Counted from the first letter of the stretch, positions 5,714 to 64,000 are shown. The stretch: DNA of 64,000 bases from Alphaproteobacteria bacterium (GCA_963422645.2 CAXXVO010000005.1:192001-256000); one strand, 5' to 3'. Notes: generated from the letters alone by a model not told the origin. Translations and numbers: made by a program.

Positions 5714-5806
5714 CAGCGCGCGAACACGGAGCGCCACACCCCGCTTAATCGCGGCACGCTCGTGTGCCACAGTAGGGCTCGCACTCTGGGACAGGGAGGG
5801 TGCGGG

Positions 5807-6682
5807 ATGACAACGGGCGGCACAGAGCGGCCCAGCGGCGTTCGTTACGAGCCCAATGATAGACCGCCGCCGGCGCTCGCCGGTGGGCTCGGCCTGCAGC
5901 TCGCTATCCTCTGCATCGCCGGCGTCGCACTGACGCCCGCAATCGTGGTCCGCGCCGCCGGCGGGACAGAGTCTTATCTCTCGTGGGCGGTCTTCGGCGC
6001 CGTCCTGGTCAGCGGCATCACCTCGGTCCTGCAAGCGGTCCGCGTCGGGCGGATCGGGGCCGGCTACGTCCTCGTCATGGGCACCTCCGGGGCTTTCATC
6101 GCGATTTGTGTGGGCGCGATTGCCCAAGGCGGGCCGGCGATGCTCGCCACGCTGGTGGTGATCTCCTCATTCTTCCAATTCCTGCTCGCGTGGCGGCTTT
6201 CGCTGCTCCGGCGAATCCTGACACCAACGGTCTCGGGCACTGTCATCATGCTGATACCGGTGACGGTGATGCCGATCGTCTTCGACATGCTGACCCACGT
6301 GCCTGAGGGCACGCCGGCGCTGGCCGCGCCGCTCTCGGCGCTTGTGACGGCGTTGGCGATCTGCGCTATCTCGCTGAAGGCGCAGGGTGTGCTGCGCCTC
6401 TGGGGGCCGGTGATCGGCATCGTCGCCGGCTGCGGGGTTGCCGGGTACTTCGGCCTTTACGATGTCCGCAGCATCGCTGCGGCAACATGGGTCGGCCTGC
6501 CGCAAGGCGGATGGCCGGGCTTCGACCTCGACTTCGGGCCGGTCTTCTGGGGACTGCTGCCGGGTTTCGTGTTCGTGACCCTGGTCGGCGCCATCGAGAC
6601 GGTGGGCGACGGCATCGCCATCCAGCGGGTCTCCTGGCGCAAGCCGCGGGCGGTGGACTTTCGCGCAGTGCAGGGCGCGGTC
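5807..6682 (+). pseudogene. NCS2 (xanthine/uracil) permease, 5' half, interrupted by the recombinase element
   Basis: Multi-TM protein with LQLA, MGTSGAFI and IETVGD motifs; breaks at ...RAVQGAV. Confidence 0.88.
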
Positions 6683-8335
6683 GGGACGCCCTGAACGCAA
6701 AAGGCAACCTTCGCCTTCGGTGCTGTGGTTGCCGGGTTTCGACGGGTCTGGACCGCCGCCTGGCGATCCCGAGATTGGGATTGAATGGCGAATGGTGATT
6801 TTGTCCTCGGTGACCAACACCTCCTTCACGATGAGCCGGACGATGCGCTGCCGTTCGGCGATGTCCAGGGTTTCGGCGGACGAGTGCAGCCGCGCCAGAA
6901 AGCCGGTCAGCGTCTCGGCGAGCCGGAGATAGGTCTCGCGATCCTTCGCCCGATCGACGGTGGATTGCAGTTCGCGATTCAGAGCCTGATCCTGACGACG
7001 GAGCTCGGGCGTTCTGTCGCGCAGTTCATCGATTGTAATCAACTCCTCCTGATAGGCGTTGACCAGGCGGTCGATGCTTTTTCGGACCCGGATCAGACGG
7101 TGCCGCAGGTCGTTCTCGCGCTGCTGGTTTGGATCGGAAGCGCGGGCCGCCTGTAGTCGCCGGTCGATCTCGGCGCCGATCAGTGCTGGATCCTCGAGCA
7201 GGCGGACCACTTCGCCCCAGACGACGTCATCGAGCAAGTCCTGGCGCACCGGCCGACTGTCGCACACCGGTCCGTTGAGATGGCGCCAAGAGTCAGAACC
7301 CAGGCAGCGATAATAGGAGATCTTGCGGGCACTCGTCTGGGCCGATGTGCGAGACAGCGCGTAGCCGCATTTGCCGCACGAGACCAGTCCCTGGAGCACG
7401 CTGGGCGTCTTCGTGCGACGCGGCGCGTGGATCTTGTTCATCTCCAGCCGCTCTTCGGCCAGGGCGAAGGTCTCTTCGCTGACGATCGCCGGCACCGGGA
7501 TCTCGATCCACTCCTCACGCGGTTTTTCGTGACCGCCGGTCGTGCCGCTGGCCACGCCGCGGCGCAGGCGCAGAGGACGTGTCACACATTTACGCGGCAT
7601 CTGGCGGGTCTTGCCGAAACAGGCTTTCCCCTTGTACGCCGGATTGCGGAGCATCGCCCACACCGTCGAGCGTTCCCAGCGCGAGCGCCCGGTGGAGGTG
7701 GGTACCGCGCGCTCATTGAGCCTGCAGGTGATCGCGCCGATGCTCATGTGATCGCAGGTGTAGCAGCGGTAAACCTCGCGAACCACCGACGCCTGCGGCT
7801 CGACGATTTCGTAGAACGCATCGCTGTCCGGGGTTTTCTTGTGGTAGCGGTAGCCATAGGGCGCGCCGCCGAGGACGGCGATTTCGCCGCGTCGCGCCCG
7901 ATGTCGCTTGCCGCGCCGGGAACGCTCCAGGATTTGCGCGCGCTCGTATTCCGCAATCATGCCCTGGAACTGGACGAGCAGATGATCTTCCGGGGTTTCC
8001 ATCGACGGCGCTCTCAAGAACACGGTCTCGACGCCCTGACGGGCCAGCTCCTCGATGATCAGAACCTGGTAGGCATAGCGCCGGCTCATACGGTCCGGGG
8101 CATGGACCAGCACCGTGTCGATGCGCCCTTCCGCGGCGAGATCCCTGACCCGCTCGAGCCCCGGGCGTTCGAGAACGGCGCCGGTATAGCCGTCATCTTC
8201 AATGATCATGTCGGGCGCGACGCTGTAACCGTGGTCCTCGGCGTAGGCGATCAGGGCCTCGGTCTGGCTCGCTATCGTGTTGTCATCTCTCTGCCGCTCG
8301 CCGGAGACCCGCGCGTAAATGGCTGCGATCTTCAT
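6167..8335 (-). CDS. Large serine recombinase; element-encoded part 8335-6685, ORF reads on into host DNA
   Basis: AIYARVS catalytic Ser, DRMSR, recombinase domain, CGKCG..YYRC..C zinc ribbon and coiled coil. Confidence 0.93.
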   Translation of the reverse strand: MKIAAIYARVSGERQRDDNTIASQTEALIAYAEDHGYSVAPDMIIEDDGYTGAVLERPGLERVRDLAAEGRIDTVLVHAPDRMSRRYAYQVLIIEELARQGVETVFLRAPSMETPEDHLLVQFQGMIAEYERAQILERSRRGKRHRARRGEIAVLGGAPYGYRYHKKTPDSDAFYEIVEPQASVVREVYRCYTCDHMSIGAITCRLNERAVPTSTGRSRWERSTVWAMLRNPAYKGKACFGKTRQMPRKCVTRPLRLRRGVASGTTGGHEKPREEWIEIPVPAIVSEETFALAEERLEMNKIHAPRRTKTPSVLQGLVSCGKCGYALSRTSAQTSARKISYYRCLGSDSWRHLNGPVCDSRPVRQDLLDDVVWGEVVRLLEDPALIGAEIDRRLQAARASDPNQQRENDLRHRLIRVRKSIDRLVNAYQEELITIDELRDRTPELRRQDQALNRELQSTVDRAKDRETYLRLAETLTGFLARLHSSAETLDIAERQRIVRLIVKEVLVTEDKITIRHSIPISGSPGGGPDPSKPGNHSTEGEGCLLRSGRPDRALHCAKVHRPRLAPGDPLDGDAVAHRLDGADQGHEHETRQQSPEDRPEVEVEARPSALRQADPCCRSDAADIVKAEVPGNPAAGDDADHRPPEAQHTLRLQRDSADRQRRHKRRERRGQRRRALRHVGQHVEDDRHHRHRYQHDDSARDRWCQDSPEQRKPPREQELEE
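6685..6704 (+). repeat. Left terminal inverted repeat (att half-site)
   Basis: GACGCCCTGAACGCAAAAGG is the reverse complement of 8899-8918. Confidence 0.95.
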
Positions 8336-8489
8336 GGTCGTCTCCTATGTCCTGCGCTCGGACCGGGATTTTGTGAGTTTGATCGGGCACCAGGATCGCG
8401 TAGGCGTTGTGGAGTTTGGCGTCGAGCAGACGATCGAAGGCATAAGCGAGGTGAACCGTGGGCCGAGCGCCCAAGCGACGTTCAGCCAT
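8283..8489 (-). CDS. Small accessory protein of the LSR element
   Basis: 68 aa ORF overlapping both the upstream ORF stop and the recombinase start; core VHLAYAFDRLLDAKLHNAYAILVP. Confidence 0.6.
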   Translation of the reverse strand: MAERRLGARPTVHLAYAFDRLLDAKLHNAYAILVPDQTHKIPVRAQDIGDDHEDRSHLRAGLRRAAER

Positions 8490-8811
8490 GCCGATCCGCG
8501 TCCGATAAAAAGCGTCTCAGCGCCCGCGCGACGATCTCCCCGATGGAGTGGCCGCTGCTCCTGGCGTGGGCTCGCAAGGTCTCCGCCAGAGTGCCTGGAA
8601 TCTTGATGGTGATCGGGATCAGCTCTTCGGTCGGCTCGGCCGGCTGGCCCATGGCGCGCGCGTCCTGGACGTAGCGATAGGACTGACGCTGCGACAGCCC
8701 GAAGCGCTGCGACAGCCGTGCCACGGCTTCGCTCGCCGTGGCGCCCTGGGCGAGCAGCGTGTAGGCGGCATTGAGCCGCTCGACCTTCTGGGATCTTGTT
8801 GACCGGATCAT
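8482..8811 (-). CDS. HTH plus ribbon-helix-helix DNA-binding protein of the LSR element
   Basis: LSQRFGLSQRQSYRYV is HTH-like; ITIKIPGTLAETLRAHA..SIGEIVARALRRFL is RHH-like. Confidence 0.75.
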   Translation of the reverse strand: MIRSTRSQKVERLNAAYTLLAQGATASEAVARLSQRFGLSQRQSYRYVQDARAMGQPAEPTEELIPITIKIPGTLAETLRAHARSSGHSIGEIVARALRRFLSDADRHG

Positions 8812-8822
8812 TTGCCATAAGA

Positions 8823-8852
8823 ATATTACCGTTTGCGGCGCAAGTCAGTCAA
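8823..8852 (-). promoter_or_regulatory. Sigma70-type promoter of the LSR operon
   Basis: TTGACT-N18-TAATAT on the minus strand just before the HTH/RHH gene. Confidence 0.55.
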
Positions 8853-8898
8853 GGGACGGTCTCGCCATTCCACAATCTGACGTTCGAAGCGGAAGTTA

Positions 8899-8918
8899 CC
8901 TTTTGCGTTCAGGGCGTC
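8899..8918 (-). repeat. Right terminal inverted repeat (att half-site)
   Basis: CCTTTTGCGTTCAGGGCGTC. Confidence 0.95.
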
Positions 8919-9809
8919 AGCGCGGACGGTGTTGGCAACCTGTTCTCCGGCCTGATGGGAACGGTGCCCAACACCACCTATTCCACCAGCATATCCGTCA
9001 CCGCGCTCACCGGCGTGGGCGCCCGCAGCGTGGGCGTTGCACTCGGAATCGCTTTCGTCGTGGTGGCGTTCATTCCCAAGGCGCTCGCCGTCGTGCTGGC
9101 GATACCGGGGCCGGTTGCGGCGGCCTACATCACCGTGCTGTTGGGGCTGCTCTTCGTGGTCGGCATGAGGATCGTCATCCAGGACGGGGTGGACTACCGC
9201 AAGGGCCTGATCGCCGGCGTGTCCTTCTGGATCGGGGTCGGCTTCCAGAACGGCGTGATCTTTCCCGAGCACGTCTCGGGCATCGCCGGCGGGCTCCTGG
9301 AGAACGGCATGACGGCCGGCGGCATGGCGGCGATTCTGCTCACGCTCTTCGTGGAGCTGACGGCACCCCGCCGACGCCGCATCCAGGCGCCCTTCGAGGT
9401 CGCGTCGCTGCCGAAGATCAGGGAGTTCCTGCAAACCTTCGCTTCCCGCAGCGGCTGGGGCGAGGCGATGGCCCATCGCCTGGATGCTGCCGCCGAGGAG
9501 GCGATCCTGACGCTGCTGCGGCACGAGGAAGAGGAAGAGGCGGAGGGAGCGCCGCACCGGAAGCGCCGCCTGCTACTCACCGCCCACAAGGAAGGCGGCG
9601 CTGCGGTGCTGGAATTCATTGCCGCACCCGGCGAGGAGAACGTGGAGGACCGGATCGCGCTGATGGGCGAGTCCTCCGACGATGCGCCCGAGCGGGAGGT
9701 GTCGCTACGCCTCCTGCGCCACCTCGCGTCCTCTGTCCACCACCAGCAGTATCACGACACGGATATCGTCACGATCCACGTGGAGGCCAGGGCGCCCCGC
9801 GCTAGCTGA
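8919..9809 (+). pseudogene. NCS2 permease, 3' half, with a C-terminal degenerate HATPase/RsbW-like domain
   Basis: ADGVGNLFSGLMGTVPNTTYS (NAT-motif region) and LLENGMTAG, followed by a soluble tail. Confidence 0.85.
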
Positions 9810-62305: not shown

Positions 62306-64000
62306 AAAACAGTCATGGTCCCCGCGGTTCTGAGCCACCCCGTGGCATGAAACAGGAGCGGTTCGGCTGACGTTTTCCTTGCGCTTGCACCCATTTGCCG
62401 TGTCAGGATGGGTATTGGCGGAGGTGGGGACGTGTGAGCGTCGTTATATCGGTGACGTAGTTCCCGATGACAAAACTGCTTCCGGCGGCCGGCTCCGCAC
62501 CCCGTATTGTACCCGGCCCGTGGCCGTGGACGCGCGGCAAATTGCACCGCACCCGCTCGTCGGATGCGTGTTCTTCCGACCGCTGTCCCCGCCTCCACCG
62601 TGGCGATGCCACGGCGTGATCGTACGCCGCCGTGGCGAGAGCGCAAATGAGGAGGAAGGCGATGAAGACGGAAGGCTTGCACGTCGTCCGGCCGCGCGCG
62701 GCGGGTCTGGACGTGCACAAGATGGAGATCACCGCGACGGTTCGCCTCTGTGAGGGCGAGGGTGAGCCGGTGGTGGAGACGCGCTGCTTCGGCACGCTGC
62801 CGAGCGGTCTGGAGGAGATGGTCGCGTGGCTGACCGGTCACGGCGTCGAGGCTGCGGTGATGGAAGGGACCGGGGTCTACTGGCAGGCGCCCTTCGCGGC
62901 CCTGGAGGCGGCCGGGCTCGAGGCGATCCTGGTGCATGCGCGTCAGGTGAAGCAGTTGAAGGGGCGCAAGACCGACGTGGCGGACAGCGTGTGGCTGGCC
63001 TGCGTGTGCCAGTTCGGGCTCTGCACGCCTTCCCACGTTCCGCCTGAGCCGTTCCGGGAGCTGCGCGCACTGAGCCGCCAGCGCCGCGTCCTGGTCAGGC
63101 AGCGCTCCGCCGTGCGCAACCGCGTGCAGAAGATCATCGACCGCGCCGGTGCGCGCATCGGCGGCATCCTCTCCGACGTCTTCGGCGTCAACGGCCGGAA
63201 GATCCTCGACGGCCTGGCGCAGGGGACGGCGCGCGAGGTCATCCTCGCCTCGCTCACCAGCCACGTTGCGAACAAGCTGGAGGGGCTCGGCGAGGCGCTC
63301 ACCCTGAGCCTGGGCGACAACGACCGCTTCATGCTCAACGACCTGCTGGAGGAGCATGACGCGCTTGAGGCGCGCATCGCGTCCTACACCAGGAAGATCG
63401 ACGGGCAGATGACACCGTGGGAGGAGCAGCTCCGTCTGCTGACCACCATCCCCGGCATCGACCGCACCGCCGCCTCGACCATCCTCATCGAGATCGGCCC
63501 CGACATCGGCGTGTTCGCCTCCAAGGAGCACTTCGCCGCCTGGGCCGGGCTCTGCCCCGGCAACAACGAGAGCGGGGGCAAGCGCCGCAACGCACGCACC
63601 CGCATGGGCTCCAAGACCCTGCGCGCCTGCCTCGTCGAGTGTGCCCACGGCGCGGCCCGAACCAAGGGGTGCCAGTTCGAGGCTCATCACCGCGCCCTCG
63701 CCGCCCGGCGCGGCTACAAGCGCGCCATCGTCGCCGGCGCTCACAAGATGCTGCGCATCATCTATGTGGTGCTCAAGACCGGCAGGCCCTACTACGACCG
63801 CACGGCCGACTACGACGCTCTGATGGTCAAGCGCAACGCTCCTCGGTGGATCCGCATGCTCCGCCGCTACGGCTACATCGAGCCCGTAGGCGCGGAACTC
63901 AAGGCCGCCTGAGCGGCCCGCATCTCGTCAGCCGGCTACGCGGGACCGCTTCGGACCACATCGGGGAAGTCCACCGCTCGTCTCCGCCGCGCCGACCCTG
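62306..64000 (+). mobile_element. IS110-family element (right end not resolved in the window)
   Basis: About 355-bp non-coding left end plus a DEDD recombinase; left boundary inferred from where amidase similarity stops. Confidence 0.8.
62662..63912 (+). CDS. IS110-family DEDD transposase/recombinase
   Basis: GLDVHK, MEGTGVYW, KTDVAD, IPGID, AGLCPGNNESGG. Confidence 0.95.
   Translation: MKTEGLHVVRPRAAGLDVHKMEITATVRLCEGEGEPVVETRCFGTLPSGLEEMVAWLTGHGVEAAVMEGTGVYWQAPFAALEAAGLEAILVHARQVKQLKGRKTDVADSVWLACVCQFGLCTPSHVPPEPFRELRALSRQRRVLVRQRSAVRNRVQKIIDRAGARIGGILSDVFGVNGRKILDGLAQGTAREVILASLTSHVANKLEGLGEALTLSLGDNDRFMLNDLLEEHDALEARIASYTRKIDGQMTPWEEQLRLLTTIPGIDRTAASTILIEIGPDIGVFASKEHFAAWAGLCPGNNESGGKRRNARTRMGSKTLRACLVECAHGAARTKGCQFEAHHRALAARRGYKRAIVAGAHKMLRIIYVVLKTGRPYYDRTADYDALMVKRNAPRWIRMLRRYGYIEPVGAELKAA

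Follow-up and report, generated by a model that had tools for sequence, protein, structure and literature searches.

A stretch of 64,000 nucleotides from an Alphaproteobacteria bacterium (GCA_963422645.2, CAXXVO010000005.1:192001-256000; hereafter the window) contains a permease gene that is interrupted by a 2234-bp element at 6685-8918, and this element encodes a large serine recombinase (LSR). The dinucleotide between element and permease is GG on one side and AG on the other, and LSR recombination characteristically stops at unlike crossover dinucleotides. How did such an element come to sit between two different dinucleotides? The empty site, the other copies in the same genome and relatives elsewhere point to an answer. 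The element is likely to be an intact, 2.2-kb, insertion sequence (IS)-like LSR transposon that joined unlike overhangs and carried the dinucleotide of its previous site along. The junctions and their surroundings are as follows:

5762-6684, plus strand: 5' part of the permease gene (target left arm), ending with its own GG at 6683-6684; matches Xan_ur_permease profile positions 6-263
6683-6684, unstranded: GG, junction dinucleotide at the LSR end, derived from the target (empty-site contig of run X4)
6685-6714, unstranded: left terminal inverted repeat (LSR-end arm), which also codes the last conserved LSR residues (..LLRSG)
8889-8918, unstranded: right terminal inverted repeat (arm at the ribbon-helix-helix [RHH] gene end), from the inverted-repeat comparison
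8919-8920, unstranded: AG, junction dinucleotide at the RHH end, brought by the element and not by the target (the empty site has GG alone)
8921-9809, plus strand: 3' part of the permease gene (target right arm), fused to a HATPase_c_2-like domain; matches Xan_ur_permease profile positions 270-383

A first-pass annotation had described a three-gene unit of 2.2 kb, bounded by inverted repeats, that sits in a permease gene without target duplication. This description held up, and so did the GG on the left and the AG on the right. Logan contigs from run X3 span both occupied junctions with 0 other letters. The gene, of the xanthine/uracil-permease family, is broken between positions 263 and 270 of the Pfam profile; no target sequence was duplicated or lost, and the target gained two bases beyond the element. 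In run X4, which carries the same species label and comes from another sample and study, a 618-nucleotide Logan contig joins 6683 to 8920 and skips 2236 nucleotides, again with 0 other letters. This empty site reads ...GGTC-GG-CGCGG. Because it has one GG, GG belongs to the target and the AG on the right is foreign. The permease arms were contiguous in all 11 congeners examined, where just one dinucleotide separates them (AG in the five closest, GG in six). This split alone left the target's own dinucleotide undecided, and the run X4 contig decided it. In the same run the depth of the element was about 51 versus about 5.6 for the flank (about nine-fold), and other right-hand junctions were present. 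Thus, the element is polymorphic and has been recently active.

The source genome contains five copies of the 2234-bp element with five different flanks and 99.9-100% identity (0-2 differences). We designated them A (the window copy), B (contig 8), C (contig 19), D (contig 10, C10:43074-50612) and E (contig 8, C8:727381-733151). Homology among the copies stops precisely where the terminal repeats do. A search of the genome for the terminal 20-mer gave exactly 10 occurrences (five copies with two ends each), also with up to three mismatches, and no solo element end. The copies lie in the permease gene (A), in a group II intron reverse transcriptase (RT) gene (B), in an IS66-family transposase gene (C), at an intergenic or membrane-protein site and at the 3' end of an amidase gene. 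The element is multi-copy and occupies different sites, and it is the minimal, cargo-free, IS-like LSR element that had been proposed. The junction dinucleotides are GG/AG in copy A, AT/AT in copy B and AA/AG in copy C, while copy D has TG on the left and AG on the right. At the RHH end, AG occurs three times (A, C and D) and AT twice. All five right junctions start with A, and all five right flanks start with C after the dinucleotide. The haplotype at element positions 277 and 325 is common to A and C. In A and B the three genes are intact. The extra length of copies C, E and D (1768, 3537 and 5305 bp) corresponds to one, two and three tandem IS110-family units inserted at an identical TTT, 34 nucleotides upstream of the LSR start. 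Variable cargo was considered for these three copies and rejected, since the inserts are tandem copies of a separate IS110-family element.

A second empty site was found for copy C, which is inserted near the end of an IS66-family transposase gene. The 24-nucleotide left flank of this copy occurs 102 times in the genome. In 101 of these occurrences the sequence continues as ...GAGAA|CTTCGCC, and one enters the element, where the occupied site reads ...GAGAA-[element]-AG-CTTCGCC. The insert is exactly the element plus AG and no base is shared at the boundaries, and therefore AA is the target's and AG was imported. A third site, T1, was rebuilt from relatives. The left flank of copy D continues as ...CCGTT-TG-CGGCGCTC... 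in the three congeners that cover it (3/3), and this continuation is the right flank of copy E. The left arm of D and the right arm of E were thus once one site with the core TG, and its junctions are now TG and AT. The right flank of copy D is the 3' end of the amidase gene (site T3), which is uninterrupted in seven congeners as ...CCGCAGGGGAGCGTC-AG-CGCGCAGCA. Since AG is present in 6/7 of them, it is the native core of the amidase site, and the AG at the RHH end of copies A and C may plausibly have come from there.

At A and C, where empty sites were seen, and at the rebuilt T1, the target dinucleotide was kept at the LSR end and a different one stands at the RHH end. The donor dinucleotide is at the RHH end in all three testable sites of the source genome (3/3). 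The core mismatch is therefore real and not a later mutation, as the empty sites show by assigning the left dinucleotide to the target and the right one to import; here the first-pass annotation was right. On this genomic evidence, recombination did not stop at unlike crossover dinucleotides at three natural insertions. Identical 2 bp at both ends and in the target, as in TnpX and TndX transposons, were seen only at copy B in the RT gene (AT/AT).

The position of copy B proved to be typical of the family. A scan of one genome per species confirmed 541 relatives, and the best 80 loci come from Alpha- and Gammaproteobacteria, Acidobacteriota, Binatia, Gemmatimonadota, Verrucomicrobiota and others. 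Close relatives of the LSR number in the thousands and are 553-829 amino acids long. With end patterns and an inverted-repeat filter, both ends were detected in 46 of these 80; the remaining 34 failed the filter or had an end missing from the available DNA. Those that failed include five copies with more diverged arms in one Pseudomonadales metagenome-assembled genome (MAG). The 46 two-ended loci are 2216-2303 bp long and have conserved terminal repeats (..AC[GT]CCC..ACGCAAAAGGTAA). The window element shares this pattern of 2.2-2.3 kb, conserved repeats and the gene order RHH, small open reading frame (ORF), LSR. Every two-ended locus (46/46) has an RT half-site on at least one flank, namely one side of the PQG-x-x|x-SP motif found in the RTs of group II introns. 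The element stands between a proper left half (..PQG-x-x) and a proper right half (SP-x-L..) in 34 of the 46, 18 in one orientation and 16 in the other. Five loci have a like RT half on both sides, seven have a single RT half, and none is without an RT half (0/46). The same dinucleotide flanks both ends in 18 of the 34 proper RT sites. In the target of copy B, RVT_1 is split at profile positions 124/125 and a GIIM maturase domain lies downstream (Pfam). The core in RT targets covers positions 1 and 2 of the variable codon that follows QG-x-x; it is mostly AT and also GT, CT, GC and complements, and the right-end dinucleotides of relatives include GT, GC, AC, AA and others. The family thus homes into DNA that codes the most conserved motif of group II intron RTs, in either orientation.

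The window copy, in a permease gene, is not inserted at the RT motif, and in the source genome only copy B and the left flank of copy E lie in RT genes. We built a position matrix of the target from the 34 proper RT sites (consensus ACnCCGCAAGGnGnnGTn-NN-nTCnCCnnTGCTnnCnAA, training scores 26.8-45.2). The copy B site with its flanks rejoined scored 40.2. The best contiguous position in the genome scored 15.9 (genome mean -49.5, standard deviation 12.2), below all training scores, and no free canonical target is left in the source genome. Sites A, C and T1 scored -9.6 (top 7.5e-4), -2.6 (1.1e-4) and -7.7 (4.6e-4). What these off-target sites share is mainly the left half-site ..GCAGGGnGnnGnn beside the core, and the amidase site shares it too. 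The permease site is therefore an off-target, weak look-alike of the RT target. The relaxed target choice suggested by the first-pass annotation holds insofar as the copies occupy different sites, which are look-alikes, but it overstates the case, and a strong preference for the RT motif with spill-over to look-alikes describes the family better. The first-pass annotation had named homologues that all share one conserved attB and identical cores as a refuting outcome; most homologues do occupy one conserved kind of attB, but their cores are not identical.

Could these junctions have arisen with matched cores? If integration was core-matched and one junction base mutated later, a single substitution would be enough for copy A (GG/AG) and for copy C (AA/AG). 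The copies differ at 0-2 of 2234 bp, yet 3/4 rebuilt sites have unlike junctions. The odd dinucleotide of A and that of C are both AG and stand at the same end, independent changes to an identical dinucleotide at a two-base position are very unlikely, and T1 (TG/AT) differs at both bases. We therefore give later mutation hardly any credence. Core-matched integrations followed by exchange of flanks between copies at different sites can draw on real exchanges. The left flank of D and the right flank of E form one locus in congeners, 5/46 loci have a like RT half on both sides, and the flanks of one relative (L021) come from two introns. Yet both flanks of A and both flanks of C come from one target, as run X4, the 11/11 congeners and the 101 paralogues show, and their dinucleotides still differ. 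Moreover, an exchange keeps each dinucleotide with its own flank, so that T1, with TG on the left and AT on the right, is unmatched too. Flank exchange is thus very unlikely to account for the mismatch.

A crossover off the centre of the palindrome, or a blunt insertion by another enzyme, would make AG or AT simply the last two bases of the element. The A that starts all five right junctions, the C that starts all five right flanks and the insert of copy C (exactly the element plus AG) fit this view. Against it, the right-end dinucleotide varies both among the five copies (AG in three, AT in two) and in relatives, and the matched dinucleotides at 18/34 proper RT sites are as expected of a 2-bp overlap. 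Because the LSR is the sole enzyme conserved in the element, its conservation counts against another enzyme as the mover. We see only a slim chance for this explanation. An off-centre TC core was also tried in reading the junctions and was rejected because it fitted copy A and not copy B. If the element were instead a dead relic whose copies spread by duplication of larger segments, the IS110 insertions just upstream of the LSR gene in 3/5 copies, and a copy without a right end in the congener G004, would be natural. Homology between copies that ends exactly at the terminal repeats is not what such duplication predicts. Another strain, whose flanks are identical, lacks the element at the permease site but has it with other junctions and at about nine times the depth of the flank, and the three genes of copies A and B are intact. 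A dead relic is extremely improbable.

We therefore return to an active transposon that joins unlike overhangs. In the mechanism that we propose, the element would excise as a circle in which the joined ends form a palindromic attP around a 2-bp core. Such a palindrome had been predicted by the first-pass annotation, and the repeat sequence agrees with it. The LSR would cut attP and target centrally with the usual 2-nucleotide stagger and rejoin them despite non-complementary overhangs. Each junction would then be a heteroduplex, and after replication one junction would have the dinucleotide of the target and the other that of the donor. The next hop would carry the dinucleotide of an earlier site along, here the AG of the amidase site. 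A carried-over dinucleotide would explain why AG recurs at the RHH end in A, C and D and why T1 has AT there. It would also account for the many relatives with matched non-AT cores, because the junctions would become alike after two hops in the same intron family. Tolerance of mismatches would also fit the target, in which the half-sites are fixed by conserved amino acids and the core falls on a variable codon (AT, GT, CT or GC). As a fuller and more tentative picture, to which we give somewhat less than an even chance, the LSR would need no core complementarity, and the element would carry a 2-bp coupling sequence, home to the RT motif and, when the introns run out, spill over to look-alikes. 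The recombinase would then occur in two forms, with its native C-terminal tail only from the circle and with junk tails from integrated copies, and these forms and the small protein that binds the coiled coil would together set the direction.

Several points weigh against the joining of unlike overhangs. It contradicts the established behaviour of phiC31, Bxb1 and resolvases; according to PMC1904298, a crossover mismatch 'severely inhibits' joining. For Tn4451-type transposons, PMC5704250 and PMC3158075 describe recombination at an identical 2 bp (GA) at both ends, in the circle and in the target, and for IS607 the GG of the target is invariant (PMC4058570, PMC6188088). The evidence for the mismatch comes from three natural events in a single genome. 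The 16/34 proper RT sites with unlike junction dinucleotides are a count inflated by flank exchange between copies, and the 34 include near-identical elements from related MAGs. At L021 the flanks belong to different introns; the left flank has 12 copies, and the intron of the right flank is without a second copy. Empty-site checks in other genomes found no second copy there of the flanks of L046 and L073, and no independently verified mismatch outside the source genome was obtained from L046, L073 and L021. Four related loci suggest the opposite polarity, by codon plausibility alone, and no polarity rule is established. The circle junction with head-to-tail ends was not found in the assembly, the 80 related loci or the Logan contigs, which miss rare forms, and it is the enzyme class, together with a reading frame closed by end joining (see below), that points to a circular intermediate. 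Copies C, D and E may be inactive owing to their IS110 insertions. Finally, a similar complex of an LSR with its recombination directionality factor has already been solved (SPbeta), and the score of the complex model described below could partly reflect likeness to it.

The genes of the element and the signals associated with them are:

6686-8335, minus strand: LSR gene, start at 8335, 550 element-encoded codons; Pfam Resolvase, Recombinase and Zn_ribbon_recom
8283-8489, minus strand: small conserved gene, 68 amino acids (90-106 in most relatives); conserved core and codon-position entropy
8369-8371, unstranded: TTT, insertion point of the nested IS110 units in copies C, D and E, empty in the window copy (copy comparison)
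8482-8811, minus strand: gene of the RHH protein, 109 amino acids, with a helix-rich N-terminal half and a C-terminal ribbon-helix-helix; Pfam RHH_1
8823-8852, minus strand: sigma-70-like promoter TTGACT-18-TAATAT that reads into the RHH gene (2 sites versus 0.1 expected)

All three genes are on the minus strand in the order RHH, small ORF, LSR. The LSR frame has no stop inside the element. In the window it passes through the left repeat into the antisense strand of the permease gene as far as 6167, which gives 722 amino acids, 550 of them encoded by the element. The frame is open in all five copies with different tails; the ORF is 556-722 amino acids long in four, and copy C has no stop within the 1500 nucleotides of flank read. 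The LSR homologues are alike up to YLLRSG, which is coded by the terminal repeat, and then diverge fully. In the joined-end form, the frame closes after 31-32 more codons at a TAA in a conserved GTAATAT box (nucleotide 91 or 94), and this closure on joining was found at 43/46 loci and in the window copy. The box is the second hexamer of the TTGACT-18-TAATAT promoter, and the LSR frame of the circular form would stop inside it. The conservation of a frame that only end joining can close speaks for a circular or tandem form. The LSR would then acquire its conserved stop and conserved 31-32-residue tail only on end joining. Integrated copies would thus make LSRs with arbitrary tails, and we speculate that the tail may matter for direction. 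The first-pass annotation had overlooked both this open-ended gene and the nested IS110 elements in three copies.

The first ~40 residues of the small ORF are conserved (FDRLL..KL.Q.Y.ILVP), and its codon-position entropies over 47 sequences are 0.85, 0.91 and 1.38. The conserved core and the most variable third codon position indicate that it is a real gene. A complex of the LSR with the small protein was predicted with a score of 0.74, and the best of 3 controls scored 0.00. The score mark was reached by 58/80 solved complexes and 2/110 mismatched pairs, and the runs had a contact agreement of at least 65% and a predicted local distance difference test (pLDDT) of at least 56 for the partner. 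In the model, residues 8-36 of the small protein contact the paired helices that follow the zinc ribbon of the LSR (residues 371-393 and 479-521). The predicted complex supports binding of the small protein to the LSR, and the small protein is probably a candidate recombination directionality factor that would bind at the base of the LSR coiled coil.

The terminal inverted repeats are 30 nucleotides long and 90% complementary, with a perfect inner 20 nucleotides. In Pfam, the LSR has a Resolvase domain at residues 4-151 (1.2e-31), which is the catalytic domain with the serine nucleophile, a Recombinase domain (PF07508) at 181-298 (5.9e-20) and a Zn_ribbon_recom domain (PF13408) at 314-376 (7e-10), in the domain order of large serine recombinases. 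It also matched PHROG 95 'integrase' (7e-97), and R9 and S11 of its catalytic motif YARVS are invariant in 14/14 aligned sequences. The RHH_1 match of the 109-amino-acid protein (E 6e-4, 20.1 bits) is just below the Pfam cut-off of 20.5. The position and length of the RHH gene are alike in nearly all relatives, and its product is probably a regulator or a DNA-binding accessory factor; as a regulator, it would act on the promoter at the right end. None of the three element proteins matched a named family above the curated cut-offs in NCBIfam or PHROGs.

The genome around these copies is extremely rich in insertion sequences. The IS110-family element of 1768 bp (Pfam DEDD_Tnp_IS110 and Transposase_20) has 47 full-length, 100% identical copies in the genome. 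It is present at window 62307-64000, where it runs past the window end and has an ORF at 62632-63912, inside copies C, D and E, and at 40-odd other places. Many of the copies form head-to-tail arrays in which neighbouring units are 0-1 bp apart, and on contig 11 as many as 5 follow one another. The IS66-family element (e.g., C19:31682-32281, locus L003:95-1498) has more than 100 near-identical copies, of which 101 are uninterrupted at the tested site. Copy E is also flanked by one more repeat family. On the left of this copy lies the 5' half of an RT gene, for which the assembly contains no 3' half. The sequence found before the right flank of D in congeners breaks off where contig 23 ends, 287 nucleotides too early. 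Copies D and E have swapped flanks, and their layout requires at least two recombination events between element copies, one product of which was lost or unassembled. The copy in congener G004 (locus L009, C1:380709-382664) is 95% identical, lies in an RT gene and aligns to positions 1-1961; its right terminal repeat was not found in the available DNA, and it is thus a shortened copy.

Two observations concern the permease locus itself. The C-terminal part of the permease (window 8796-9809) matched HATPase_c_2 (1.3e-5, 25.7 bits), just below the Pfam cut-off of 27.4, and a histidine-kinase-like ATPase domain is an unusual partner for an NCS2-type permease. A contig of run X5 contains the last 29 nucleotides of the element, AG and the right permease arm (window 8890-9120), joined to 187 letters that do not align to the window. 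Either a diverged relative of the element inserted at the permease site or a rearranged copy could account for this contig.

The family is apparently one of undescribed minimal LSR transposons, and the window copy a real, recently active and off-target member. No match to a described IS family was found, a possibility that the first-pass annotation had raised. In the literature search, which lay outside subscription journals, ISfinder and supplements, neither an LSR element directed at intron RT genes nor mismatch-tolerant LSR transposition was found described. In public plasmid records, a 'recombinase family protein' and a 'ribbon-helix-helix protein, CopG family' (RefSeq) lie between two 'reverse transcriptase domain-containing protein' fragments, with no mobile element annotated. 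The family is abundant, with its 541 confirmed relatives in many phyla, and for the LSR the examined public records say only 'recombinase family protein'; annotation thus misses an element family. What is new here are the verified off-target insertions, the verified unlike dinucleotides, the flank exchange between copies and the candidate partner protein.

Serine integrases are valued for genome engineering, where the match of the central dinucleotide sets the orientation and allows orthogonal landing pads. If our reading is true, a natural LSR family that joins unlike cores qualifies the matching rule and offers an enzyme with a long recognition motif and a free core. The element is also a parasite of another mobile element, the group II intron. 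The source genome shows the consequences of an exhausted niche, with spill-over into host genes such as the permease at look-alike sites and with copies that recombine and rearrange the chromosome.

Among known systems, the phage and island serine integrases (phiC31, Bxb1, A118 and SprA of SPbeta) resemble the LSR in the order of resolvase, recombinase and zinc-ribbon domains, followed by paired helices as judged by the complex model. The nearest solved chain is SPbeta SprA (E 5.6e-12). Also alike are a palindrome-like attP, a preferred attB in a conserved gene and, maybe, a small directionality factor at the base of the coiled coil. These integrases, however, move whole phages or islands, are single-copy and have complete genes, whereas the window element is multi-copy and cargo-free and has a recombinase gene that is closed only by end joining.

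Tn4451/Tn4453 (TnpX) and Tn5397 (TndX) are similar to the window element in having an LSR transposase, several targets, no classical target duplication and a 2-bp crossover at the ends. The circular intermediate is established for them and deduced for the window element. They are 6-21 kb long with cargo and mobilisation genes, whereas the window element is 2.2 kb and cargo-free, and their identical GA cores differ from its unlike cores at A, C and the reconstructed T1. Work by Crellin and Rood in 1997 is said to have found that Tn4451 derivatives with one mutated GA still excised; if so, mismatch tolerance would have a partial precedent. The likeness of the LSR to TnpX is confined to the catalytic domain (E 3.2e-5). 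According to PMC10083194, DUF4368 is common in the TndX-like multi-targeting clade; in the window element no Pfam match to DUF4368 was found at E up to 0.01. Multi-targeting LSRs have conserved cores according to Durrant et al. (2022), whose main text makes no mention of reverse transcriptase.

IS607 is also IS-sized and has a serine recombinase, a presumed circle, a 2-bp overlap and no target duplication. According to PMC4058570 and PMC6188088, it has no terminal inverted repeats and almost no target specificity. Its small serine transposase has an N-terminal helix-turn-helix, whereas the window enzyme is a 550-amino-acid LSR with an N-terminal catalytic domain, in an element with 30-nucleotide inverted repeats, a target motif of about 38 bp and a varying core. 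The NCBIfam IS607 model gave 34.7 bits against a cut-off of 110.

The closest parallel in mechanism is found among elements of another enzyme class. Tn916/Tn1545 and CTnDOT need no homology in the overlap, form heteroduplex junctions and carry the previous flank to the next site, as PMC5812530 describes. They are large conjugative elements with tyrosine recombinases and 5-7-bp overlaps, whereas the window element has a serine recombinase and a 2-bp overlap, and thus the analogy is one of mechanism only. If the proposed mechanism is true, the window element would be the first serine-recombinase counterpart of Tn916.

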